From an uncultured Chloroflexia bacterium (lineage in GTDB: Bacteria > Chloroflexota > Limnocylindria > Limnocylindrales > CSP1-4), in the NCBI GenBank assembly GCA_963828165.1, contig CAWHDR010000001.1, forward strand, positions 800,001 to 864,000: a DNA stretch of 64,000 nucleotides, in the 5' to 3' direction. A program made the translations under genes and the position numbers. A model generated the notes under the pieces. It was not told the DNA's origin, did no database searches, and saw nothing but the letters and a program-made list of their open reading frames with translations. Below are positions 28,763 to 55,301 of the stretch, in pieces. The first letter of the stretch is position 1; the number at the start of each line of letters is the position of its first letter.

Positions 28763-28837
28763 TGGTTGCGGGGACTGGATTCGAACCAGTGACCTTCGGG
28801 TTATGAGCCCGACGAGCTGCCGCTGCTCCACCCCGCT
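28763..28837 (-). tRNA. Initiator tRNA-fMet (CAT)
   Basis: Cloverleaf; GGG/CCC anticodon stem, CTCATAA loop, GGTTCGAATCC, CCA end, 1:72 mismatch. Confidence 0.97.
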
Positions 28838-34988: not shown

Positions 34989-37826
34989 TCAGCCGGTGTT
35001 CTGCAGGCCGGCAGCAACGCCATTCACGGACATCTGGACGAGTCGCAGGACCCGAGGGCGCTCCGGGTCGTCGTCCGGGAGGCCCCGGAACCTGGCAAGG
35101 AGCCGCACCTGGAGCTCGGAAAGGGCGTCCACGTACGGATTGCGCAGCCCGATCGAGCGTTGCAGGACCGGGGCACCGTCGAGCAGGTGGTCGCGACCGG
35201 TCACCCGCAGGAGCAGGGCCACCGTGCGGTGGTACTCCGCTTCGATCGTCTCCCAGCGGCGGTCGTCGTCCGGGCTCGACGCGAGCGACGCATACCGGCG
35301 GGCGACACCCATGTCCGCCTTGGCCAGGATCATCTCGGCGTTATCGAGCACGGACGCCAGGAACGGCCACGACCGGTACAGCCGACCGATCTCGGCGAGT
35401 CCCTCGTCGCCATGCCTGGCGCGGAACGCATCCAACGCGGAGCCCAATCCATACCAGCCGGGCACGTTGATGCGCGACTGGGACCAGGCGAACGTCCACG
35501 GGATCGCGCGCAGGTCGTCGATCGGGGGCATCGCGGCCCCGGACCCGCCGGCTCGGCCGCGGGCCGCCGGCCGCGAACCGAGACGAAGGTCGGACAGCTC
35601 CGCGATCGGCGTGATGTCGCGGAAGAACCCCGCGAACCCGGGGTCGTCGTGGATGAGCGCGCGATATGCGGTCCGCGCCGTGTCGGCCAGCTCCGCCAGC
35701 AGCGGACCGCCCTCGTGCAACGCTTCCGTGGCGGCGGCATCGTGCTCGGGCGTGGAGGCGATGAGCGCAGCGCCCGTCAGCTGCTCGAGGTGGCGACGGG
35801 CGATGGCGGGATCGGCGTAGTTGGCGGCGATGACCTCGCCCTGCTCGGTGAGCTTGAGCCGCCCATCGACCGAGCCCGGGGCACCGCCCAGGATCGCCCG
35901 ATTGGCCGGTCCGCCGCCGCGTCCGATGGCGCCGCCGCGACCATGGAAGAGCGTCAGCTCGACGCCGTGCTCCCGCGCGACCGCGACGAGCGCCTCCTGG
36001 GAACGATGCAGCATCCAGGCGGCGGCGAGGAAGCCGGACTCCTTGTTCGAGTCGGAATAGCCGAGCATCACCTCCTGGCGGTCGCCGCGGGTCGCGAGGT
36101 GGGCTCGGTAGCCCGGGTCGCGCAGCAGCTCGTCGAGGATCGGGCCGGCCCGAGCGAGCGCGTCGGAGGTTTCGAACAACGGCACGACGTCGAGGCGCGG
36201 GGCCGGGCCTTCGGGCCCGTGAAGGGCGTGGCCCCCACCGTCCGCGCCGCGCTCACGCGCGACCCGCGCGAGGCGCAGCACGTCGGTCACGTCCCGAGCC
36301 TCCGCCGTGAACGAGACGACGAACCGCCGGCACGACTCCTCCCCGAACCGCTCCTGCAGGGCGTCGATGGACCGGAACGTGGCCAGCACCTCGTCGAGCG
36401 TGACGCCCGGCGTGACCTCGCTGCTGCTGTCGGCATCCACCGGACGGGGCGCGTCCCCGAGCCGCTCGAGCGCGGCCCGATGGACCGCGCCGTGCTGTCG
36501 GATCTCGAGCGACGCCAGGTGGAACCCGTAGGTTGCGAGCTGCCAGCGCAATTCGGCGACCTCGCCCCAGGCGATGCGCGCCAGTCCATCGTCCACGAGC
36601 GCCGCCTGGAGCTCGGCCAGCTCCGCGTCGAGGTCCGCGGCCGAGTCGTAATGGCCCGAGCGCGGTCCCGTGTCGTCGGCGAGCGTCACGCGGGTCCGGC
36701 GCAACCGCTCGGCGATGAACCCGAATCGCTGGCGGTAGGGCTCGTCGGGGAACCGGCGGCGGAGCTGTCGGTCGGTCTCGGGAAGGGCCTCGGCATCGCG
36801 GGCCAGGCGGTTCGCCAGGGGCCGCGCGACGCGCGTCGACGTCGTGGCTGCCGAGACCGTCTGCATCAGGCGCATCGCCACCGCCTCGTACCCGTGGAGG
36901 ACGTGATCGGCCTGGATGCGCAGCGTCCGTTCGGTCATCTCGGCCGTCACGGCCGGGTTCCCGTCGCGGTCACCGCCGATCCACGATCCGAAGCGCAAGA
37001 ACGCCGGGACGCGGGGCGGCCGAGCGCCCGTCCGCGGACCCCGGGTGCCCGGGCCGTCCAGTGCCGCGTCGGTGGTGCGATACAGCCGTGGCACGAGCGT
37101 GAACAGCGTCGCGTCGAACACGGCCATCGCCGTGCGCACCTCGTCGAGCGGCTCGGGAGCCACGGAGCGCAGGTCGGAGGTCCGCCACATGAGCGTGATC
37201 TCCTCGCGCAGCCGGCGGCGGACCTCGCGGTCCTCCGATGGGGTGAGGCGCGGGTCGTCCAGTCGCTCGAGCAGCGCCGCGCAACGGCGCAGCGCGATGA
37301 GCGCGGTCCGTCGCCGGGCCTCCGTCGGGTGCGCGGTCAGGACCGGCGTGATGCGCAACCGGCCGAAGATGTCGTCGAGCGCCGCGTCGTCGCGCCCGGT
37401 CCCCCGCAGCCGCGCGATCGCCTCGGCGATCGAGTCGTCCAGGATCCCGTCGCGCGCCGAACGCTCCCGGCGCCGAAGCGCCCGGACGCGGCCGCGGGCC
37501 TCGGCGAGGTTTACGAGCTGGAAGTAGAGGGAAAACGCCGAGATCACCGCCTCCACGGCACCCACGTGCAGGCCGTCGAGCTCAGCCTCGACCCGAGCCC
37601 GGAGCTCCGGGTCGTCAGCGCGCCGGAGGTCGATGGCCGCGCGCCGCAGTCGCTCGACGAGGTCGAAGATCTCGTCGCCAGCTTGCTCCGCGATGACCTG
37701 GCCGAGGAGCACGCCAAGGAGCCTGACCTCGAGCGCGAGGGGGTCGCGCGCGCCGGCCGATCCGATGCCCGTCGGCTCGGCGCGTCGAGCCCGCGGTCCC
37801 GGTCTGCGTCGACCACGTTCCGTCAC
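34989..37826 (-). CDS. ppc: Phosphoenolpyruvate carboxylase
   Basis: VLTAHPTE, GSWIGGDRDGNP, QEVMLGYSDS, FHGRGG, LRAIPW, QNTG. Confidence 0.97.
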   Translation of the reverse strand: MTERGRRRPGPRARRAEPTGIGSAGARDPLALEVRLLGVLLGQVIAEQAGDEIFDLVERLRRAAIDLRRADDPELRARVEAELDGLHVGAVEAVISAFSLYFQLVNLAEARGRVRALRRRERSARDGILDDSIAEAIARLRGTGRDDAALDDIFGRLRITPVLTAHPTEARRRTALIALRRCAALLERLDDPRLTPSEDREVRRRLREEITLMWRTSDLRSVAPEPLDEVRTAMAVFDATLFTLVPRLYRTTDAALDGPGTRGPRTGARPPRVPAFLRFGSWIGGDRDGNPAVTAEMTERTLRIQADHVLHGYEAVAMRLMQTVSAATTSTRVARPLANRLARDAEALPETDRQLRRRFPDEPYRQRFGFIAERLRRTRVTLADDTGPRSGHYDSAADLDAELAELQAALVDDGLARIAWGEVAELRWQLATYGFHLASLEIRQHGAVHRAALERLGDAPRPVDADSSSEVTPGVTLDEVLATFRSIDALQERFGEESCRRFVVSFTAEARDVTDVLRLARVARERGADGGGHALHGPEGPAPRLDVVPLFETSDALARAGPILDELLRDPGYRAHLATRGDRQEVMLGYSDSNKESGFLAAAWMLHRSQEALVAVAREHGVELTLFHGRGGAIGRGGGPANRAILGGAPGSVDGRLKLTEQGEVIAANYADPAIARRHLEQLTGAALIASTPEHDAAATEALHEGGPLLAELADTARTAYRALIHDDPGFAGFFRDITPIAELSDLRLGSRPAARGRAGGSGAAMPPIDDLRAIPWTFAWSQSRINVPGWYGLGSALDAFRARHGDEGLAEIGRLYRSWPFLASVLDNAEMILAKADMGVARRYASLASSPDDDRRWETIEAEYHRTVALLLRVTGRDHLLDGAPVLQRSIGLRNPYVDALSELQVRLLARFRGLPDDDPERPRVLRLVQMSVNGVAAGLQNTG

Positions 37827-37862
37827 GACGCGACCCCGGAGCCTCGCCGTGCCCGCCGCGAG

Positions 37863-37926
37863 CGCAACCTAGCGACGACGCGACCGCAACCTTTCTCGGC
37901 CGCAACCTTTCTTACCCTTGTATCGT
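37863..37926 (+). promoter_or_regulatory. Direct repeats and -10 element upstream of the histidine kinase
   Basis: CGCAACCT at 37863; CCGCAACCTTTCT at 37884 and 37900; TATCGT at 37921, 7 nt before ATG 37934. Confidence 0.6.
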
Positions 37927-37933
37927 GACCACG

Positions 37934-39292
37934 ATGGCAGCCGATCGGACGACGCTTCGCAACGCACGACCGCCGGGTTCGGCGGGCCGGAAGCGCGCGT
38001 CGGATACGGCCGCGACCGCACCTGGCGGGCGGGAGGGCCCAGGCACGATCTCCGCGCCCGACCAGCTCGATCAGCTGCAGTTCATCCACGATGTCGCGCG
38101 CCTGGCCACGACCGCGCGCACCTGGGACGAGCTGCTCGAGACGGTCGTCGACGGGACGCGCGACGCCCTCCATGCCGATGTCTCCTCGCTCTACCTGCTC
38201 GACCGGGACGGAGCGTACCTGACGCTGGCCGCGACGAACGGCCTCGACCGCTTCCAGATCGGCCGGGCGCGAGTCCCGTTCGGCGAAGGCGTGACCGGCC
38301 ACGTGGCGGCCCATCGCGAGCCGCTGATGATCCCCGACGTCAAGGCCGATCCACGCTTTCTGTGGGTCCGCGGTCTCGACCAGCGCCGCTTCGTCACCTC
38401 CATGCTCAGTGTGCCCCTCTCCTGGCACGATCAGACCGTGGGCGTGCTCAACGTCCAGACCGAGCAGCGCCGCGTCTTCAGCCCCTCGGACGTGGCCCAG
38501 CTGAGCGCGGTCGCCGACCTCCTGGCGGGCATCGTCGAGAAGGGCCGCCAGCAATCGGAGGCGGAGGCACGGGTCGAGTCGCTCAAGGCCATCGACGAGG
38601 CGCGCAGCGAGCTCATCGCCCTCGTCACCCACGAGCTGCGAACCCCGCTGGCCGTCGTGCGGGCGTACGCCGACCTGCTCGCCGAGGAGCCGCAGCTCGC
38701 CGGGCGCGAATCGCGCGACGTCGAGCGGCGCAAGACCCGCGCGGACTGGCACGGCGCCACGCTTGAGCAGATCGAACGGCTCGACCGCCTCGTGGATTCG
38801 ATCCTGGCGTCGGTTCGCGTCGTGCCGGACGACGCTCCGTCGGTCACGCCGGTGGACGTCGAGGCCGTGATCGCCGAGGTCCTCGGCTCGTTGCGACCCC
38901 TGCTCGGGCGCCACCGCGTGGACGCCCACGGTGCGCCGCGACTCCACGCGCTGGCCGACCCGCCTCGCCTCCGCCAGATCATCGAGCACCTCGTCGAAAA
39001 CGCGGTCAAGTACGCGCCGTCCGAGACGACCATCACGATCGACTGGGCGCTCGTCGAGGGCGTCATCCACCTCGGGATCAGCGACGAGGGCCCGGGCATC
39101 CCGGACGAATGGCGCGAGCGGATCTTCGAGCCGTACGCGCGACGCGACACGCACACGGCGCGCGGCTCGGGGATCGGCCTGTATGCCGCGAAGCGACTCG
39201 GTGAATCGATGGGAGCGCACCTGTGGTGCGAGCCGGCCAAGCCGCACGGGGCGCGATTCGTCGTCGCGATGCCGGCCGCGGTCGCCATCTGA
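37934..39292 (+). CDS. Soluble GAF-domain sensor histidine kinase
   Basis: GAF (SLYLLD..LAATNGL..GEGVTG..VGVLNVQ), THELRTPL, ENAVKY, DEGPGI, GSGIGL; no TM segment. Confidence 0.92.
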   Translation: MAADRTTLRNARPPGSAGRKRASDTAATAPGGREGPGTISAPDQLDQLQFIHDVARLATTARTWDELLETVVDGTRDALHADVSSLYLLDRDGAYLTLAATNGLDRFQIGRARVPFGEGVTGHVAAHREPLMIPDVKADPRFLWVRGLDQRRFVTSMLSVPLSWHDQTVGVLNVQTEQRRVFSPSDVAQLSAVADLLAGIVEKGRQQSEAEARVESLKAIDEARSELIALVTHELRTPLAVVRAYADLLAEEPQLAGRESRDVERRKTRADWHGATLEQIERLDRLVDSILASVRVVPDDAPSVTPVDVEAVIAEVLGSLRPLLGRHRVDAHGAPRLHALADPPRLRQIIEHLVENAVKYAPSETTITIDWALVEGVIHLGISDEGPGIPDEWRERIFEPYARRDTHTARGSGIGLYAAKRLGESMGAHLWCEPAKPHGARFVVAMPAAVAI

Positions 39293-39307
39293 CCGCTTGA
39301 GAGGACC

Positions 39308-40027
39308 ATGATCAGCATGACCAGCCGCTCCCTCCGCATCCTCGTCGTGGACGACGACCCCGCGATGGTCGGGGCCATCACCGCGCTCGTCGGGACCGAG
39401 GGCCACCAGGTCATCACCGCGTACGACGGGCTGACCGCCGTGAAGCGCTTCCGCGACGAGCATCCGGACCTCGTCCTGCTGGACCTCGCGATGCCCGGCC
39501 CCGACGGGTTCAGCGTGGCCGGCCAGATGCGCGCCGTCGGCCACGCGCCGATCCTGGTGGTGTCGGGCGAGAGCGGCGAGGCGGCCAAGGTTCGGGCGCT
39601 CGGCATCGGGGCGGACGACTACCTGACGAAGCCATTCGGCAAGGCCGAGCTGCTGGCGCGGATCGCCGCAGTCATGCGGCGGGTGGACCGGCCGGGCGCC
39701 AGTGGCGGTCCCGCCGGTCCGCTGGAAGCCGGGGCCCTGGTGCTGGAGCCCGGACGCCATGAGGCGCACGTCGGAGACGTCGCGCTGGCCCTCACCCCGA
39801 CCGAATTCCGTCTGCTCGAGGCGCTGGTTCGCGCGGACGGCGACATCGTGCCGCACCTGCAGCTGGCCCGAGCGGGCTGGCCGGCGGAGAGCGATCCGGA
39901 CCTGCTCTGGCTGAAGCCGCATCTCGCGCGGTTGCGGGCCAAGGTGGAAGCCGCTGGCGGGCCGCACGTCGTGGCGGTCCGGGGCGTGGGTTATCGGCTC
40001 GTCGTGGAAGGAGTCGCGGGGGGCTGA
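39308..40027 (+). CDS. OmpR/KdpE-family response regulator
   Basis: VVDDD, LLDLAMP, GADDYLTKPF, LTPTEF, VRGVGY. Confidence 0.93.
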   Translation: MISMTSRSLRILVVDDDPAMVGAITALVGTEGHQVITAYDGLTAVKRFRDEHPDLVLLDLAMPGPDGFSVAGQMRAVGHAPILVVSGESGEAAKVRALGIGADDYLTKPFGKAELLARIAAVMRRVDRPGASGGPAGPLEAGALVLEPGRHEAHVGDVALALTPTEFRLLEALVRADGDIVPHLQLARAGWPAESDPDLLWLKPHLARLRAKVEAAGGPHVVAVRGVGYRLVVEGVAGG

Positions 40028-40052
40028 CCCGCCGCCGATCGGCGGATCGGCG

Positions 40053-40274
40053 TCAGACGTTCACCGAGATGGCACGGCCGCTCGTGTCGTGCGCGGCGTC
40101 CGCACACGCGACCCGGCACCCGCGGGCGTCGCGCCCGCCGAGCGGATTGAAGTGGAACCACGCGTCACCGGTCGCGGCCAGGCGACAGCCACACGCAGCG
40201 CAGGTGACGGGAGCCGCATGTCCGCCTCGGACGGCGAGGGGGTGGCGAAGCTCGGGTTCGGACGGATGGATCAT
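40053..40274 (-). CDS. 73-aa Cys/His-rich small protein
   Basis: CAACGCRL..WFHF..GCRVAC..H at the C-terminus of the 40053 ORF; AAGG upstream. Confidence 0.6.
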   Translation of the reverse strand: MIHPSEPELRHPLAVRGGHAAPVTCAACGCRLAATGDAWFHFNPLGGRDARGCRVACADAAHDTSGRAISVNV

Positions 40275-40457
40275 GGCGATCACCTTGTCGTGCTGCAGGC
40301 GGGCGGATGGCGGGACGGAGAGGGTCGTCGACGCGGACGGGTGACGCTTCCCCAACATGACATCGAGCGTAGGTTCTGCCTCGGTCCGTGTCGGCAGCGG
40401 GAGGGCTGCGACACGGTTGCGGCTGGGTGGCGAGGTTCGTAGAACAGCGGTCCGCGA

Positions 40458-40482
40458 ATACATGCCATGTCCTGGCATGTAT
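40458..40482. promoter_or_regulatory. Perfect 10-bp inverted repeat (operator-like)
   Basis: ATACATGCCA-N5-TGGCATGTAT. Confidence 0.55.
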
Positions 40483-40614
40483 GGCTGGGATGCTGACGGC
40501 ATCACTCGCGACGTCGAGCTTCTGGCCTCATCGGATCGACCACTCGTGGGCCTATCGATGAGACCAGATGTCGCCCACCATGGCGGCATCGACATCGCCC
40601 AGGAGGCTCGAAAG

Positions 40615-40731
40615 ATGGAAACGCTGTTCGTCTGGATCGTCGTCATCGTCGCGCTCATCGCGTTGGACGCCGGAGCCCTGCTGTGGGGCACCGACTCGCG
40701 CGACCCGTTGCCCGACGACCACCACCGCTGA
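40615..40731 (+). CDS. 38-aa single-TM peptide METLFVWIVVIVALIALDAGALLWGTDSRDPLPDDHHR
   Basis: AGGAGG RBS at 40601-40606; WGxDSR tail. Confidence 0.75.
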   Translation: METLFVWIVVIVALIALDAGALLWGTDSRDPLPDDHHR

Positions 40732-40764
40732 TCATCCCGACTGAGCGCGAACGGAGCCACGACC

Positions 40765-40998
40765 ATGCATCTCCTCTACCACGACCTCGTCATCGATTCG
40801 GAGCGGGAGCGCTCGCGCAAGCACGACGACGCTCGGTATGCCGTCCAGGCCGCCCTGCGAGAACGCGACCACTCCTCGGCAAGGCGGCTACTGGCCATGG
40901 CACTCGCGAGCGTGAGCCGGGCCAGCGCGGCCGGCGTGCGACGCCTCGATGCCTGCCTCGCGGACGACCTGGTCGCCCACGTCGTCGCGACTCGGTAA
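40765..40998 (+). CDS. 77-aa hypothetical protein
   Basis: GGAG RBS; follows the 38-aa peptide. Confidence 0.6.
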   Translation: MHLLYHDLVIDSERERSRKHDDARYAVQAALRERDHSSARRLLAMALASVSRASAAGVRRLDACLADDLVAHVVATR

Positions 40999-41012
40999 AG
41001 GGGTCTCCGGGG

Positions 41013-41279
41013 CTCGCGACACCGCCGATCGATCCCGTCGCCTCGCCGGAGGCCTATCGACGCGAGCTGCTCGCGTGGCTCGGCGAAGACGACCCGGCCG
41101 TGGTCCAGGGAGCCACGGCCGCGCGAGTGCGCGAGCTCGTCCGTGAGGCGGGCGACCGGCTGCGTGTGCGACCGGAGCGGCGCGAGTGGTCGGTGATCGA
41201 ATGCATCGGCCATCTCGTCGATTCGGAGCTCGTCGCCGGCGCGCGGATGCGCTGGATCCTCGCGGAGGACGAGCCGCCA
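41013..41279 (+). pseudogene. Truncated DinB-family gene remnant
   Basis: AYRRELLAWLGEDDP...RPERREWSVIECIGHLVDSE...RWILAEDEP; no nearby start codon, no room for the C-terminal half. Confidence 0.6.
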
Positions 41280-41326
41280 CATCGCCCAGGCCGAGCGGGC
41301 GCTCGCTGCGCTCCGGGGCGGCTAGC

Positions 41327-44300
41327 TCAGACGACGGGCTGGCTCGGGTCCGCTGTCGCTCGTGACACGCTCAACGAGGCGACCGCTGCCGGACCGAGCG
41401 GCACGGCCGGCCGATCGGGTTCGATCGTCGCCGCGACGACCGGTGCGACCGGCTCGACCAACCAGAACGCCGAGGTCGGGGCGTCCAGCCCCAGGATCTG
41501 CCGTCCCAGGGCCGAGCCGGCTGAGGCGTGGTCCTCGAGCAACGCGCGCAGCTCGACCAGCCGCTCGGGGCCGTCGGGACGATCCGCGACGACGCCCGAG
41601 AGTCGGACGGCCGCCACGCTGTCCGCGTGCAGCGCCGCCACGTGGCGGCCACTCGGGTCGTACAGGTACGCCCGCCCGCCGGTCATCCCGGCCCCGAAGT
41701 TCGCCCCGACCGGGCCGAGCACCACGACCGTGCCGCCGGTCATGTACTCGCAGCCGTGCGGGCCGATCCCTTCGACGACCGCTTCGGCGCCGCTGTTGCG
41801 CACCGCGAACCGCATCCCGGCACGTCCGACGAGATGCAATCGCCCGGCGGTGGCGCCGTACAGGACGGTGTTACCGGCGATCGCCTCACCGGCCGCCGCC
41901 ACCGGCAGGTCGGGCTCAGGCGCGATCGTGATCCGACCGCCGGACAGACCCTTGCCCACATAGTCGTTGGCCTGGCCGACGAGCCGGAGCTCGATGCCCG
42001 GACCCGAGAAGGCGCCGAACGACTGCCCCGCGGCCCCGCGCAGCTCCAGGCGGACCGGTCCGCGTAGTTCCCCGCGCTCGAGCGCGCCGGTGAGCCCGGC
42101 GCCGAAGGAGCGGTCGGCCGTCGTCAGTCGTAGTCCGCCGACCGTGACCGGGCCCTGGTCTCGGAACGCCGCCGCGATGCGCGTCTCGAGTGGTGATGCG
42201 GGTGCGTGGCGCGCGAGCCGCGTCGGGAGGCCCGGATCGGCCCGCCGCGCCGCATCCGCGCCCCACGACGAGGCGCCGGTCACCGGGGCGAGCTCGGCCC
42301 GGGCAGCCGGCACCGGTCGGAGGAGCCGCCGGCTTTCGCCGACGATCTCGCCGACGGATCGGGCGCCGACGGCCGCCAGCTCCCGTCGGAGGTCCTCGGC
42401 CACGGCGAGGAAGTACCGCTCGACCATCTCGGGGGTGCCGGCGAATTTCGCGCGGAGGTCCTCGCGCTGCGTCGCGATGCCGGTCGGGCACGTGTCGAGG
42501 TGGCACTGGCGGGCCATGTCGCACCCGACCGCCACGAGCGCCGCGGTCCCGAAGGCGAACTCCTCGGCGCCGAGCAGGGCCGCCACGAGCAGGTCACGAC
42601 CCGTCTGCAGGCCGCCGTCGGTTCGCAGCGCGACTCGGTCGCGCAGGTCGTTGCGCAGCAGGACCTGGTGGACCTCCGCGAGACCCAGCTCCCACGGGGC
42701 GCCGACGTGCTTGATCGAGCTGAGCGGCGACGCCCCGGTCCCGCCTGCATGCCCCGACAGGTGGATGTACGTCGCGCCGGCCTTGGCCACGCCCGCAGCG
42801 ACCGTGCCGACCCCCCGGTTGGCAACCAGCTTGACCCCGACACGCGCCGTCGGGTTGATCGCTCGCAGGTCGGCGATGAGCTGAGCGAGGTCCTCGATCG
42901 AGTAGATGTCGTGATGGGGCGGCGGACTGATGTAGCTCTGGCCGGCCTGGCCGCGCCGAAGGGCCGCGATGTAGGCCGTCGCCTTCCGCCCCGGAAGCTG
43001 GCCGCCCTCGCCGGGCTTGGACCCTTGCGAGATCTTGATCTCGAGCTGGTCGGCCCGGGCCAGGTACGTCGCCGTCACGCCGAATCGGGCCGAGGCGACC
43101 TGCTTGATACGCGCGTCGTGGCGCCGGCCATCCGGTCCCGGCAGGTACCAGGCGGGATCCTCGCCGCCTTCGCCGGTGTTCGCGGCCCCGCCAGCGCGCT
43201 GGATCCCGATCGTCAGCGCCTGGTGCGCCTCCGGGCTCAGTGCGCCCACGCTCATCGCCGACACGACGAAGCGACGGGCGATCCCGCGCGCGTCCTCGAC
43301 CTGATCGAGCGCCAGCGGGACGGACGAGCGGCGCACGCGGAGCTCGTCGCGGGGGACTGCCGGGGCATCCGCGGCGCGACCCAGGGCATTCCGGTAGCGC
43401 GTGAGCGCGGCATCCACCGACGCGGCGGCGGCCTCGCCGTCGATCGACCCGGACAGCACCTGGATCTCCTTGGCGATCCCGGGTGAGAAGAGATGCGCCT
43501 CGCCGTCGGCCCGGAAGCGCGCCCAGCCCGGGTCCGGCAGGCGCGGCTCGCGGCCGGCGGAGGTCGGCGGCAGGGCCACGGCCGCCGCCCGACGACGCAG
43601 GCCGCGTTCGCCGAGGTCGGCCAGCGTCGTCCGGCCGGGCCACGCCGCCGCGTTGGGGAAACAGCGCGCGATGACATCGGGTGCCAGGTCGACGGTGTCG
43701 ATGAGCGTCCCGCCGATGTAGCTCGCGACCGCGCTGATGCCCATCCGCGCGAGGGTCTTGCGCAGGCCCGCCTCGAAGGCGGCGACGAGGTTCCCGATCG
43801 CCGCGGCGGGAGTGACGGTCTCAGCGCCGCGCGTCCCCGCCAGCTCCGCAGCCAGCTCGATGGCGAGTCGCGGGTGAGCGGCCGTGGCACCGACCGCGAG
43901 GGCCATCGCCATCGAATGCACGTCGAGGATATCCGCGGCATCCACGACGATGTCCGTTCGCCCGCGCAGGCCGGCGTCGGTGAGGGCGGTGTGGATGGCG
44001 CCCGCGGCCAGGATCGACGGGACGGGCAAGCGATCGACCGTCAGCGCGGCATCGCTGACGACCAGGACTTCCACGCCCGACTCCGCGGCGCGCACCGCCG
44101 CGGTGGCGAGTGTCTCGAGCGTGCCGGCCAGGCGCGCCGCGCCAGCCGAGGCGGGCCAGGTCGCATCGAGCGTGCGAACGCGCATCCCGCGAGCCTCGAG
44201 GGCCACGGACAGACCCGGAAGGTCGGCGACGATCGGCCGCTCCAGGCGGAGCGTCCGTGGCCCGCGCGGCGGGCCGCCGAGCAGCGCCGGGCGGCGACCC

Positions 44301-45934
44301 AGCTCGACGCGAAGGTCCATGACGACCCGTTCGCGTTCGGGGTCGATCGCCGGATTGGTGACCTGGGCGAAGGCCTGGCGGAGGTGATCGGCGATCGGCC
44401 GGTCCAGGCGGCCGCGCCCGGCCGTCGGCGTGTCGTCGCCCATGCTCCAGAGCGGCTCGTGGGCCTCGAGCACCATCGTCTTGATATCGAGCCGCGCTCG
44501 CTCGGCGTCGAGCCCGGCGAGATAGCGGGCGGCGTGGTCGAGCGGAGGACGCTGCTCCACGGCGCTCGCCGCCGCCTCAGGCGTGTCCTCGTGCAGGGCC
44601 CGGGGCTGGTCGTGGATCGGCAGGTGGCGCAGAGCCCAGGCCTTCGCGTCGGTGTCCTCGAGGATGGTCCGCCGGCCGGGCTCCACCAGCAGCAGTTCGC
44701 CGGGCCCCAGGCGGCCGCGGCGGATGGTCTCCGACGCGGGGAACGGCACGGCCCCGGCCTCCGACGCCACCGCCACCAGCCGGTCGCAGTTCACGGCGAA
44801 GGCCGCCGGGCGAAGACCATTGCGATCGATGAGCGCCCCGACGCGCTTCCCGTCACCGAAGACGATCGCGGCGGGGCCGTCCCACGGGGCCAGCATCCCG
44901 GCGGTCCGTCGACGCAGCGTGGCGACATGGGGATGCGGCGCACGTCGGAGGGCAAGCGCCTCCGGGATCGCGGCCAACAACGCCGGCGTGAGGCCCCAGC
45001 CGGTCGTCGTCAGCAGCTCCAGGCCCTCGTCGAGCGACAACGAATCGGAGCCGTCCGGCGACAGCAGCGGGCCCGCGTCGATCAGGTCGGCGGCGATCGG
45101 ACGGGCCCCGCGGTCACGCGCGCGCCCGCGGACCTGCTCGCGGTTCCCGCGGACGGTGTTGATCTCGCCGTTGTGCGCGATCGAGCGGAACGGCTGGGCC
45201 AGACGCCAGACCGGATGCGTGTTCGTCGCGTAGCGCTGATGGAAGATCGCGTAGCCGAGCTCGACCGGCGCCAGCAGGTCCGGGTACAGCTCGGCCAGGC
45301 GGCCACCAGCGACGAGGCCCTTGTAGACGATCGTCCGGCACGACGCGGACGGCACCGACAGCTCGGCCGCGGCCCCGCCGGCTTCCCTGGCCGCCGTCTC
45401 CAGACGACGTCGGGCGACGACGAGCCGGCGTTCGAAGGCATCGTCGGTGATGGGCCGCGGGTCGTCGGCGCCGCGCAAGGGACGGGCGACGAAGGCCTGC
45501 GCGACGGTCGGACGGGACGAGGCGGCCGCGGCGCCCAGCGCGGCGGGCTCCACAGGCACGATCCGCCAGGCCGCGATCGGGAGCTCCGCGGCCGCGAAGA
45601 CGCGCTCCACGAGTGTGCGCGCGGCGCGGCCCCCGACACGACCCCTGGGCAGGAACAGCATCACGACGGCCGGGCGCTCCCCGGCGGAGGACGGACCGAA
45701 CGACTCGAGGAGCGATGGGTCGAGCGGCAGCGAGACGCCGGCTCCGTCGCTCGATTCGCCGTCCGCCCCGAACGCTCCGCGATGGGCGAGCGCCGCGAGC
45801 CCGGCGAGCGCGAGTGGGAGGACCCGCGCCCGCGATCGGCCGCCCGCGTCCGCCACGAAGCCCACGCCGCAAGCGTCGTGCTCGAACCGTTCGTCGTAGA
45901 GCGGAGTGGCGGAACGTGATCGGTGCGGTGGCAT
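41327..45934 (-). CDS. gltB: Glutamate synthase large subunit
   Basis: DACGVGF, HNGEINT, NTGEGGE, QGSKPGEGGQLPG, CHLDTCPTG, GCEYMTGG. Confidence 0.96.
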   Translation of the reverse strand: MPPHRSRSATPLYDERFEHDACGVGFVADAGGRSRARVLPLALAGLAALAHRGAFGADGESSDGAGVSLPLDPSLLESFGPSSAGERPAVVMLFLPRGRVGGRAARTLVERVFAAAELPIAAWRIVPVEPAALGAAAASSRPTVAQAFVARPLRGADDPRPITDDAFERRLVVARRRLETAAREAGGAAAELSVPSASCRTIVYKGLVAGGRLAELYPDLLAPVELGYAIFHQRYATNTHPVWRLAQPFRSIAHNGEINTVRGNREQVRGRARDRGARPIAADLIDAGPLLSPDGSDSLSLDEGLELLTTTGWGLTPALLAAIPEALALRRAPHPHVATLRRRTAGMLAPWDGPAAIVFGDGKRVGALIDRNGLRPAAFAVNCDRLVAVASEAGAVPFPASETIRRGRLGPGELLLVEPGRRTILEDTDAKAWALRHLPIHDQPRALHEDTPEAAASAVEQRPPLDHAARYLAGLDAERARLDIKTMVLEAHEPLWSMGDDTPTAGRGRLDRPIADHLRQAFAQVTNPAIDPERERVVMDLRVELGRRPALLGGPPRGPRTLRLERPIVADLPGLSVALEARGMRVRTLDATWPASAGAARLAGTLETLATAAVRAAESGVEVLVVSDAALTVDRLPVPSILAAGAIHTALTDAGLRGRTDIVVDAADILDVHSMAMALAVGATAAHPRLAIELAAELAGTRGAETVTPAAAIGNLVAAFEAGLRKTLARMGISAVASYIGGTLIDTVDLAPDVIARCFPNAAAWPGRTTLADLGERGLRRRAAAVALPPTSAGREPRLPDPGWARFRADGEAHLFSPGIAKEIQVLSGSIDGEAAAASVDAALTRYRNALGRAADAPAVPRDELRVRRSSVPLALDQVEDARGIARRFVVSAMSVGALSPEAHQALTIGIQRAGGAANTGEGGEDPAWYLPGPDGRRHDARIKQVASARFGVTATYLARADQLEIKISQGSKPGEGGQLPGRKATAYIAALRRGQAGQSYISPPPHHDIYSIEDLAQLIADLRAINPTARVGVKLVANRGVGTVAAGVAKAGATYIHLSGHAGGTGASPLSSIKHVGAPWELGLAEVHQVLLRNDLRDRVALRTDGGLQTGRDLLVAALLGAEEFAFGTAALVAVGCDMARQCHLDTCPTGIATQREDLRAKFAGTPEMVERYFLAVAEDLRRELAAVGARSVGEIVGESRRLLRPVPAARAELAPVTGASSWGADAARRADPGLPTRLARHAPASPLETRIAAAFRDQGPVTVGGLRLTTADRSFGAGLTGALERGELRGPVRLELRGAAGQSFGAFSGPGIELRLVGQANDYVGKGLSGGRITIAPEPDLPVAAAGEAIAGNTVLYGATAGRLHLVGRAGMRFAVRNSGAEAVVEGIGPHGCEYMTGGTVVVLGPVGANFGAGMTGGRAYLYDPSGRHVAALHADSVAAVRLSGVVADRPDGPERLVELRALLEDHASAGSALGRQILGLDAPTSAFWLVEPVAPVVAATIEPDRPAVPLGPAAVASLSVSRATADPSQPVV

Positions 45935-46029
45935 CGGCTGCCTCCGGGGGAGCGTTGCGATGGGGACGGAGCTACGGCCCATCGGGATCAGGAAGGCGGA
46001 GATCCCGATCGGCCGGAAAGCCCGCGGCG

Positions 46030-47250
46030 TCAGGACTGGTAGGCGGCCTCGCCGTGCGTCGCGAGGTCGATCCCCATCTCCTCATCGGTGGCCGAGACGC
46101 GGATCCCGAGGATCACGTCAACGACCTTCACGATGACGAAGGTCGAGATGACGGCGAAGGTGACCGTGGCCCCGACGGCGATGAGCTGGTAGACGAGCTG
46201 CTGGCCGTTGCCCTCGAGCAGGCCGGTGTAGGCCTCCTGGACGGCGGCCGTCGCAAAGACGCCGGTCGCGACCGCACCGAAGATGCCACCGACGCCGTGG
46301 ACCGCGAAGACATCGAGCGCGTCGTCGATCTTGAGACGCGAGCGCAGCAACGTGGCGCTGTAGCACAGGCCGCCGACAACGAGGCCGATGAACAGGGCCC
46401 CACTGACCCCGACGAAGCCCGAGGCGGGCGTGATCGCGACGAGACCGGCGACCGCACCGCACGCGGCGCCGACGACACTGACCTTGCCCTTGTGGAGATA
46501 GCTCGCAAGGACCCAGGTGATCGTGGCGGCCGCAGCGGCCGTGTTGGTCACCATGAAGGCATTCGCGGCGAGGCCGTTGGCCGCCACGGCGGATCCGGCG
46601 TTGAAGCCGAACCAGCCGAACCACAGGAGGCCGGCACCAAGGACCGTCATCGGAACGTCGTGCGGCTCCATCGGCTCGCCGTTCACGGCGCGACGGCCGA
46701 TCAGGAGCGCGACGACGAGGGCCGAGACGCCCGAGCTGATGTGGACCACCGTGCCGCCGGCGAAGTCGAGCGCGCCCAGCTTGAAGAGCCAGCCGTCGGC
46801 CGACCAGACCCAATGGGCCAGCGGTGAGTACACGAAGATCGACCACAGGAGGGTGAAGAGCACGAACGCGCTGAACCGCTTGCGCTCGGCGAACGCACCG
46901 GTGATGAGGGCTGGCGTGATGGCCGCGAACATGAGCTGGAATGCGGCGAACAACACGAACGGGACGGTCGTCGCGTAGGTGTCGGACGGCTCGAGGCCGA
47001 CGTTGTTGAAGAACGCGAAGTCGAGCCCGCCGATCAGGCCGAGCCCACCGATGTCAGGCCCAAAGGCCAGGCTGAATCCGACGATGACCCAGACGACGCT
47101 GACCAGCGCGAGGCCGAAGAAGCTGTGCATGATCGTCGAGAGGACGTTCTTGCGACGCACGAGGCCGCCGTAGAACAGCGCCAGGCCCGGCAGCATGATC
47201 ATGACCAGGGCCGTGGACATCAAGAGCCAGGCGGTATCTCCGGTATCCAT
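46030..47250 (-). CDS. amtB: Ammonium transporter
   Basis: GLALFYGG, FQLMFA, DFAGGTVVHI, WFGWFGFNAGS, DDALDVFAVHG. Confidence 0.97.
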   Translation of the reverse strand: MDTGDTAWLLMSTALVMIMLPGLALFYGGLVRRKNVLSTIMHSFFGLALVSVVWVIVGFSLAFGPDIGGLGLIGGLDFAFFNNVGLEPSDTYATTVPFVLFAAFQLMFAAITPALITGAFAERKRFSAFVLFTLLWSIFVYSPLAHWVWSADGWLFKLGALDFAGGTVVHISSGVSALVVALLIGRRAVNGEPMEPHDVPMTVLGAGLLWFGWFGFNAGSAVAANGLAANAFMVTNTAAAAATITWVLASYLHKGKVSVVGAACGAVAGLVAITPASGFVGVSGALFIGLVVGGLCYSATLLRSRLKIDDALDVFAVHGVGGIFGAVATGVFATAAVQEAYTGLLEGNGQQLVYQLIAVGATVTFAVISTFVIVKVVDVILGIRVSATDEEMGIDLATHGEAAYQS

Positions 47251-47457
47251 CGATCGCACGTTCCTTCCAGCGCTGCAGCCATACCCGCGAGGAGCTCGTG
47301 CAGGGAAGGCTAGGGTGCGAGGCGGTCGTGGTCGGGGACCCCGGCAGGGCTGACAAGGTGTCGGTTGGGGGACGAAGCGGGTTGCGACGGCCCGATTCGT
47401 TGCGAACCGGGTGCGGATCGAGCGCGGGACGTCCGGAAGCCGGTCGCGATCCGAGGG

Positions 47458-55226: not shown

Positions 55227-55301
55227 TGGCGAGCCGGGTGGGATTCGAACCCACGACACAGGGATTAAAAGTCCCCTGCTCTGCCGCTGAGCTACCGGCC
55301 C
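55227..55301 (-). tRNA. tRNA-Lys (TTT)
   Basis: GGGCCGGTAGCTCAG...CTTTTAA...GGTTCGAATCCC...CCA. Confidence 0.97.

Follow-up and report, generated by a model that had tools for sequence, protein, structure and literature searches.

Within a 64,000-nucleotide (nt) stretch of the genome of an uncultured bacterium of the class Limnocylindria (Chloroflexota; assembly GCA_963828165.1, contig CAWHDR010000001.1, positions 800,001 to 864,000; henceforth the window), a soluble histidine kinase with a GAF domain and an OmpR/PhoB-family response regulator are encoded between the genes for phosphoenolpyruvate (PEP) carboxylase (ppc), glutamate synthase (gltB) and an ammonium transporter (amt). We propose that they form a Limnocylindria-specific two-component system, in which the kinase reads the nitrogen/carbon balance through its GAF domain and drives an OmpR-type regulon, and we give this reading a probability of roughly 0.55. 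The domains, the gene linkage, a direct-repeat DNA box and the conservation of this box are direct observations. The conserved OmpR-type box very probably defines a regulon at the carbon/nitrogen junction, as judged from its genomic positions, while the input, glutamine and/or 2-oxoglutarate by analogy with PtsP, is favoured by somewhat more than even odds. Taken this way, the pair is a real variant, not described before, of the two-component control of nitrogen and carbon, and has a well supported predicted regulon and a putative ligand.

The kinase-regulator pair

The kinase comprises a GAF (residues 68-201), a HisKA (226-296) and a HATPase_c domain (345-451), with the H, N, G1, F and G2 boxes all intact, and lacks any segment of transmembrane type (its 19-residue hydropathy peaks at 1.15, that of Amt at 2.42). 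Its gene lies 15 bp upstream of that of the regulator, in which D15, D16, D59 and K108 are invariant in all 14 aligned members. Kinase boxes, receiver acidic pocket, phospho-accepting Asp, Lys and winged helix are thus those of a class I two-component system, and phosphotransfer from kinase to regulator is suggested by their adjacency at 33/33 loci of the genus and 25/25 other loci of the same clade (clade 1, see below). A first-pass annotation of this DNA, made without database searches, had described such a pair divergent from ppc and close to gltB and an amtB gene, and domain searches recovered every one of these parts. The transporter is indeed one for ammonium, but amt is the preferable name, as it scores above the cut-off of TIGR00836 and below that of the AmtB equivalog. 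Likewise, the 1.3-kb gap given between the pair and the amt-gltB operon has the right length (1,299 bp from regulator to gltB), but it contains a conserved small Cys-rich gene with its own box that had been missed. The features are, in order:

34989..37826, minus strand: ppc, phosphoenolpyruvate carboxylase (PEPcase E 3e-262; NCBIfam 812 bits, cut-off 815)
37863-37869, 37885-37891 and 37901-37907, plus strand: three CGCAACC half-sites, predicted autoregulatory site in the ppc/kinase promoter region
37913..37926, plus strand: tandem -10-like hexamers TACCCT and TATCGT, the second 7 nt before ATG 37934
37934..39292, plus strand: soluble GAF-HisKA-HATPase kinase, 452 aa from its likely start (longest frame from GTG 37925)
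39308..40027, plus strand: OmpR/PhoB-family regulator, receiver and OmpR winged helix, family-specific recognition helix WLKPHLARLR
40053..40274, minus strand: 73-aa Cys/His-rich protein, CxxCxC...HF...GRDARGC...C....H
40366..40371, minus strand: -10-like hexamer TACGCT of the small gene
40404..40432 (40415-40432 plus the overlapping 40404-40421), minus strand: direct-repeat box of the small gene, 23.1 bits, 43 nt before the hexamer
41327..~45865, minus strand: gltB, glutamate synthase large subunit (longest frame from 45982), no adjoining gltD
46030..47250, minus strand: amt, ammonium transporter, no glnK
47307..47312, minus strand: -10-like hexamer TAGCCT of the amt-gltB operon
47357..47374, minus strand: proximal amt direct-repeat box, 22.7 bits, ending 44 nt before the hexamer
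47398..47415, minus strand: distal amt direct-repeat box, 14.1 bits, ending 85 nt before the hexamer

By its named homologues the organism belongs to Ca. Limnocylindrales (Chloroflexota). The ppc and kinase genes are divergent and share a promoter region. ATG 37934 is the likely start of the kinase, because GTG 37925 overlaps the conserved -10-like hexamer and the closest homologue has 452 aa; given that the second hexamer is only 7 nt before this ATG, the promoter layout suggests a leaderless transcript.

Conservation of the gene neighbourhood

Linkage of the pair to nitrogen genes, noted in the first-pass annotation, is kept across three paralogous clades and through rearranged gene orders. 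In the genus, the arrangement ppc-kinase-regulator-small gene is present at 33/33 loci, with gltB at 30 (the three others are short contigs of 3–9 kb) and amt at 21, a degree of linkage that could by itself be explained by inheritance. The 25 clade-1 loci from other genera include 16 with ppc, 10 with gltB and 10 with amt. Clade 2, a paralogous pair ~50% identical and not found in this genome, follows an argC-J-B-R-G operon at 7/7 loci of the genus and adjoins arg, gltB or amt at 13/15 other loci, some of which have an altered gene order or come from a second family. Next to several clade-2 kinases a cassette encodes a divergent Amt-family protein (E 1e-36) together with a Na+/H+ exchanger and a TPR protein (L067:7419-8501, L070, L091, L113). 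Clade 3, from the families labelled here f3 and f5, has a degenerate second GAF domain and lies directly before gltB-amt in five, and beside amt in one, of 14 stretches centred on gltB/amt. The kinase search at E 1e-60 detected only 1/80 f3 genomes, clade 3 being below this threshold, and the clade was recovered through neighbourhoods and the regulator profile. A separate genome scan found a nitrogen gene at a distance of at most 8 kb in 25/36 loci of the kinase family; as a control, 2/17 kinase genes of this genome have such nitrogen-type neighbours.

The regulator winged helix was detected in 28/401 genomes of the phylum, all in four families of the class Limnocylindria, one of which (f4) has it in only 2/17 genomes. 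Its top matches include MtrA and GlnR (E 5e-14 to 5e-11). One genome of a streamlined family (L338) has a regulator with a degenerate acidic pocket and no adjoining kinase, an apparent decay of the system.

A direct-repeat box and its predicted regulon

De novo motif search in 34 amt upstream regions returned a direct repeat with a period of 11 bp, idealised as CGCAACC-N4-CGCAACC. Such a period is the binding geometry of OmpR/PhoB-type regulators, and the conserved box is matched by a recognition helix that is nearly invariant over all three clades. Using a matrix trained on 32 amt regions, from which this genome and its nearest relative were excluded, the best intergenic sites of the genome were found upstream of phosphofructokinase (pfk), the small gene, amt, glutamate dehydrogenase (gdhA) and pckA-mdh, pckA encoding PEP carboxykinase. 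Among 2,991 genes pfk ranked 1, amt 4, gdhA 5 and pckA 6, and with 0/100 column-shuffled matrices did pfk, gdhA or pckA come among the first 15.

Given that pfk, gdhA and pckA were selected after the scan, which lowers the weight of these ranks, the footprint in relatives is the test that counts. This comparison drew on 41 genomes, this one included, took the 30 best loci for each gene (one short pfk locus was dropped) and counted boxes of at least 11 bits. Upstream and downstream frequencies were 14/30 and 0/30 for pckA, 15/30 and 1/30 for gdhA, and 5/29 and 0/28 for pfk, with shuffled matrices giving 1–2%. At amt genes of distant families, outside the training set, the box was present in 6/8. 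Boxes at gdhA, pckA or pfk were found in 15/27 clade-1 genomes, just 1/9 clade-2-only genomes and 0/2 genomes that lack the regulator.

Position relative to the promoter differs among the targets. The amt boxes end 43–44 nt (20 cases) and 84–86 nt (18 cases) before the -10 hexamer. The small-gene box, present in 88/93 sequences and always on the strand of the gene, ends 43–44 nt before the hexamer in 53 of them. The pfk box ends 21–24 nt before its hexamer, and at the kinase promoter 30/56 clade-1 loci have a box of at least 10 bits, of which 21 end 21 nt before the first hexamer. In this genome the latter site is weak as a full box (10.1 bits, rank ~120), and no conserved -10 hexamer for ppc was seen by eye. 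The orientation and spacing of the pckA and gdhA boxes vary, and they are at times abutting the hexamer or downstream of it. Public RNA runs contained only 0.06 of the words, in contigs of relatives, and were uninformative on expression.

The leaders of two of these genes have features of their own. In the pckA 5' leader (G000:C1 ~494765-494990; L185:3266-3500, minus strand; L186-L214) the words GACTGYGRAAGCCGAC and GCGCGGCCGGTC, conserved in 27/30, pair around a variable hairpin (~55–90 nt). Six loci gave no Rfam match at E 0.1, and the element is a candidate for a new leader of riboswitch or protein-binding type. Of the gdhA 5' leaders (L215-L244), 19/30 share a conserved word, hairpin-like, around GTCCGGGAGACG, again with no Rfam match in the four loci searched. 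A SAM riboswitch (L185:3419-3525) precedes the threonine-synthase-like gene divergent from pckA.

The GAF domain and its relationship to PtsP

The first-pass annotation had likened the kinase GAF to that of PtsP/EI-Ntr, and the words it quoted are present in the kinase translation. The N-terminus of the kinase matches positions 10-183 of the 748 of the PtsP model PRK11061 (E 1e-22); the enzyme I domains that follow the GAF in PtsP are absent, and HisKA and HATPase_c stand in their place. With a 32-sequence GAF profile, the best matches of solved structure were 3ci6 (PtsP, 1e-30), the Geobacter GAF 3e0y (1e-29) and 3trc (PtsP, 4e-25), the next one being at 7e-19. A model of the GAF (pLDDT 87) found its best fold matches in the PtsP GAFs 3trc (TM 0.89) and 3ci6 (TM 0.85). 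On the family profile, nine PtsP or PtsP-like GAFs scored 80–107 bits, where the 99th percentile of 1,171 other GAFs is 85. Eight residues common to the kinase GAF and PtsP (V86, S88, Y90, T104, L107, F145, Q178 and R183, numbered from GTG 37925) occur in only 7–25% of other GAFs. The polar strand residues of the domain are strongly conserved across clades.

Other results on the GAF weigh against placing it within PtsP, and against taking its ligand from there. In a search with the single sequence, the PtsP GAFs were outranked by 3e0y of Geobacter and by the GAF pair of a cyanobacterial cyclase. The fold match next to PtsP is a cAMP-binding GAF (TM 0.81), and the GAF of a kinase from a mycobacterial Calvin-cycle cluster reaches 102 bits on the same family profile. 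In the trees (a quick one of 140 rows, then a careful one on a hand-chosen subset of 40) the PtsP GAFs form a clade of their own (100/99) with the kinase GAFs outside, and the group that joins the two (94/81) also contains nine unrelated GAFs. Moreover, three invariant or near-invariant polar residues are unlike their PtsP counterparts, namely T124 (V in PtsP), S162 (G) and N176 (mostly V), so that the ligand may differ. The shared and differing residues listed here would line the pocket. The likeness claimed earlier therefore stands in so far as no solved structure comes closer than the PtsP GAFs in profile or in fold; profile comparison bears it out, while phylogeny speaks against membership and leaves a sister placement blurred by the nine other GAFs. 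That the GAF is PtsP-related holds; that it is PtsP-derived goes beyond the evidence.

Glutamine inhibits EI-Ntr, an effect lost in a GAF mutant (PMC4848567). That glutamine and 2-oxoglutarate act in opposite directions through the PtsP GAF has been validated in some bacteria only (review PMC13104625). Given the position outside the PtsP clade and the differing polar positions, binding of glutamine/2-oxoglutarate by the kinase is something that we infer only. No glutamine-bound structure was found among the GAF matches. A search of the GAF profile against 1.84 billion representatives returned only multi-GAF proteins among the best 150, which were taken as a background pool, and a word-limited search found no PtsP among longer homologues. 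Among the genes called in this genome there is no second PtsP-like GAF, the best other domain scoring 56 bits. The mycobacterial kinase mentioned above belongs to a plasmid Calvin-cycle cluster (L116:3273-8480), where the same GAF type may serve the control of carbon fixation.

PII and other nitrogen regulators in the class

Known transcriptional control of nitrogen metabolism works mostly through PII proteins or complexes of glutamine synthetase. The first-pass annotation had noted that no glnK accompanies amt, and indeed searches detected PII in none of the 61 genomes of the genus and order, among them this one, which is 87.7% complete. In the class as a whole PII was detected in 5/251 genomes, with 13/14 control genomes positive; in two of the five it adjoins a more distant amt (48–49% identical) that has no box. 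RpoN, GlnD and GlnE were each found in 0/5 genomes tested. The class tallies, and only these, include the unpublished genomes G175, G291, G201, G158, G265, G145 and G141.

The further claim, that the pair replaces NtrBC/GlnR/PII control, fits the near absence of PII from the class sample and the failure to find the other three proteins in the five genomes tested. As a wholesale statement it is overstated, because the glnA operon has no box here, the arginine operon encodes an ArgR of its own and has a conserved palindrome upstream, and many PII-less f4 genomes also lack the kinase-regulator pair. A near-invariant pair of such palindromes, TGCATGACTAT...ATAGTCAT, overlaps the argC promoter (L068, L070, L072, L073, L101, L103, L104, L107, L108, L112), and we take these to be, probably, ArgR boxes. 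Elsewhere in this genome (L150:886-6070; G000:C1:1682885-1688069) a gene of 497 aa that matches no NCBIfam model, presumably PucR-like, is followed by a 719-aa glutamine-synthetase-like protein and glnA, a cluster that may be the route by which glutamine synthetase is regulated here. Family f2, which is streamlined, yielded gltB, amt and PII in 0/11 genomes each; 5/5 genomes tested keep a kinase core without the GAF, as seen in two loci of 3.2 kb and in a profile search, and one of these kinases starts directly behind trxB.

It would be a larger claim that, across the whole class, PII has given way to a kinase that itself binds glutamine and 2-oxoglutarate through a PtsP-type GAF, and whose OmpR regulon ties together Amt-GOGAT, glutamate dehydrogenase, PEP carboxylase/carboxykinase and phosphofructokinase and induces a metal-binding microprotein as feedback regulator or PII stand-in; this we consider doubtful.

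The small Cys-rich gene

The small gene accompanies the pair at 33/33 genus loci, 23/25 other clade-1 loci and 3/22 clade-2 loci, and 93 distinct sequences of its product were collected. A homologue gave no Pfam family, and the protein matches only unnamed Chloroflexota clusters (at 0.96). A model of it (pLDDT 77) found no solved fold at Z of at least 2, and a HEWD match in the atlas at 0.89 is a lead only. Judging from its Cys/His pattern the protein is a probable metal binder, and it is a possible feedback regulator. The gene also follows a more distant OmpR gene, again with a box (L339).

Comparison with known systems

PtsP/EI-Ntr of E. coli, Sinorhizobium and Caulobacter (3ci6, 3trc) offers the closest solved relatives of the GAF, with rare residues in common, but its output is a PEP phosphotransferase whereas here it is a HisKA kinase, and the likeness is confined to the sensor. 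Membership in PtsP was rejected, there being no enzyme I domains and the GAF being outside the PtsP clade.

The actinobacterial GlnR and MtrA are also OmpR-family regulators with an 11-bp direct repeat. A GlnR-like 5+6+5 repeat is found, by sequence likeness, upstream of amt and gdhA: the box reads GCAAC-n6-GCAAC here and t/gTAAC-n6-Gc/aAAC for GlnR of M. smegmatis (PMC10704036), a likeness of sequence only. In S. coelicolor GlnR activates amtB and represses gdhA (PMC10704036), which parallels the activation of amt and repression of gdhA predicted here. However, GlnR is an orphan regulator whose receiver is non-canonical and unphosphorylated, and the signal that it reads is indirect (PMC10704036), whereas our regulator has a canonical pocket and an adjoining kinase. 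The recognition helices also differ (WLKPHLARLR here, TVDVHVRRLR in GlnR; 8HML, 8HIH; PMC10235972), and no PII or GlnD partner genes and no glnA box were found in this genome. The system is consequently not GlnR: a kinase adjoins, the receiver is canonical and the recognition helix is another one.

NtrB/NtrC and GnfL/GnfM of Geobacter (PMC2995071) are likewise kinase-regulator pairs acting on nitrogen assimilation genes, and GnfM apparently represses gdhA (PMC2995071). Their input comes through PII and their output through a sigma-54 enhancer-binding regulator, in contrast to the OmpR-type output here, with PII, GlnD and RpoN not found. Membership in NtrB/NtrC was rejected on the absence of RpoN and PII and on the OmpR-type regulator in place of a sigma-54 AAA+ one. 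Pelagibacter (PMC3870248), in a different phylum and with a PII-independent nitrogen response, is a precedent for a free-living lineage with neither PII nor NtrBC. A literature search, mostly at the level of titles and abstracts and largely outside subscription journals, found no published description of this pair. The main text of the main paper on the class (PMC13212565) does not contain the terms 'two-component', 'histidine kinase', 'glutamate synthase', 'ammonium' or 'PII'.

Other features of the locus

No GltD scored above cut-off in this genome, and GltB (41327-45865) is possibly ferredoxin-linked. The model of its central domain scores E 1e-65 here, against 1e-113 to 1e-121 for GltB of some sister genera. 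A truncated DinB_2-like frame (41001-41327, plus strand) runs into the end of gltB, with fuller copies in relatives, and two small ORFs (~40558-40731 and 40766-41000) are common to a few relatives. Rfam detected two tRNAs in the window, at 28766-28837 and 55230-55301 (both on the minus strand), and no regulatory RNA.

Proposed mechanism and alternative readings

In the mechanism that we propose, low glutamine or high 2-oxoglutarate would be read by the PtsP-related GAF of the kinase, glutamine inhibiting and 2-oxoglutarate stimulating it, by analogy with PtsP only. The regulator would bind CGCAACC-N4-CGCAACC upstream of amt-gltB, gdhA, pckA, pfk and the small gene. Its phosphorylated form would activate amt-gltB and the small gene, as the fixed orientation and the distance of 43–44 nt from the -10 hexamer suggest. 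The same form would repress gdhA and pckA-mdh, where the boxes vary in orientation and spacing and in some cases overlap the hexamer or lie behind it. It would probably activate pfk and its own operon too, given boxes that end 21–24 nt before the hexamer. The net switch would lead from glutamate breakdown (glutamate dehydrogenase, PEP carboxykinase) and gluconeogenesis to the synthesis of glutamate from sugar carbon and ammonium, with phosphofructokinase, PEP carboxylase, glutamate synthase and Amt on the synthesis side and no PII.

Besides the points on the GAF given above, several others tell against this mechanism. The steps of binding, phosphorylation and expression are predictions from sequence. 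Relatives share ancestry, and counts among kin are not independent; at 8/25 clade-1 loci outside the genus, neither ppc nor a nitrogen gene is present within the fetched stretch. The boxes of the carbon genes and gdhA are nearly absent from clade-2-only genomes, as seen above. A box at the glnA operon of this genome was considered and rejected (both glutamine synthetase genes rank low, 1330 and 1785 of 2,991), and the glnA footprint in relatives is 4/30 upstream and 2/27 downstream, although in four relatives a box stands 20–33 nt before the -10 hexamer of glnA. A simple reading of the regulon is further complicated by argC, which has no box in this genome (rank 222). Lastly, the loss of the GAF in f2 may be a single deletion.

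There are three alternatives. The most serious keeps the pair and its regulon and has the GAF bind another central metabolite (glutamate, aspartate, arginine, PEP, pyruvate or oxaloacetate), which would make the system a switch between amino-acid and sugar carbon sources rather than a sensor of nitrogen starvation. Half of the best sites are upstream of pfk, pckA-mdh and ppc, which are carbon genes, no box marks glutamine synthetase in this genome although it is usually central to a nitrogen regulon, clade 2 sits after an arginine operon, and the tree position and polar residues of the GAF leave room for another ligand. On the other hand, it is the ammonium-scavenging amt that has two boxes at fixed spacing and that carries a box in all three families checked, the boxes of the carbon genes are patchy and mostly missing from clade-2-only genomes, and four relatives do show the box before the glnA hexamer. 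We consider this switch unlikely, yet clearly ahead of the other two.

An indirect signal to the kinase, through the small protein, Amt, a nucleotide or a redox cue, with the GAF as a docking or dimerisation module, seems improbable. It would explain why within clade 1 no metabolic gene is as tightly linked to the pair as the small gene, whose box is also the best conserved, and it would suit a GAF whose next closest relatives bind cyclic nucleotides and among whose matches no glutamine-bound structure appears. However, the conserved polar strand residues fit a small-molecule pocket, and the small gene was found at only 3/22 clade-2 loci.

Finally, the box might belong to another transcription factor, the pair being an unrelated neighbour kept by inheritance, since binding of the box by the regulator is a prediction, the box at its own promoter is weak here and 8/25 clade-1 loci outside the genus have no metabolic neighbours; this is equally hard to sustain, as the 11-bp direct repeat fits OmpR/PhoB geometry (compare the GlnR boxes in PMC10704036), three clades that differ in gene order all show the linkage, recognition helix and box are both conserved class-wide, and the 2/2 genomes without the regulator have no boxes at the scored genes.

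Implications

If the proposed nitrogen/carbon-sensing mechanism is true, it would show how Amt and glutamate synthase can be controlled without PII in an uncultured class, and would extend PtsP-type GAF sensing past the phosphotransferase system. On the larger, class-wide claim set out above, the system would stand as a separate architecture of nitrogen control beside NtrBC, GlnR, TnrA/GlnR and NtcA, and would provide synthetic biology with a one-protein, PII-free glutamine sensor. The proposed system consists of two soluble proteins and an 18-bp site and is tractable in vitro or in E. coli, and the predicted box would serve as a readout of nitrogen status in metatranscriptomes of Limnocylindria.

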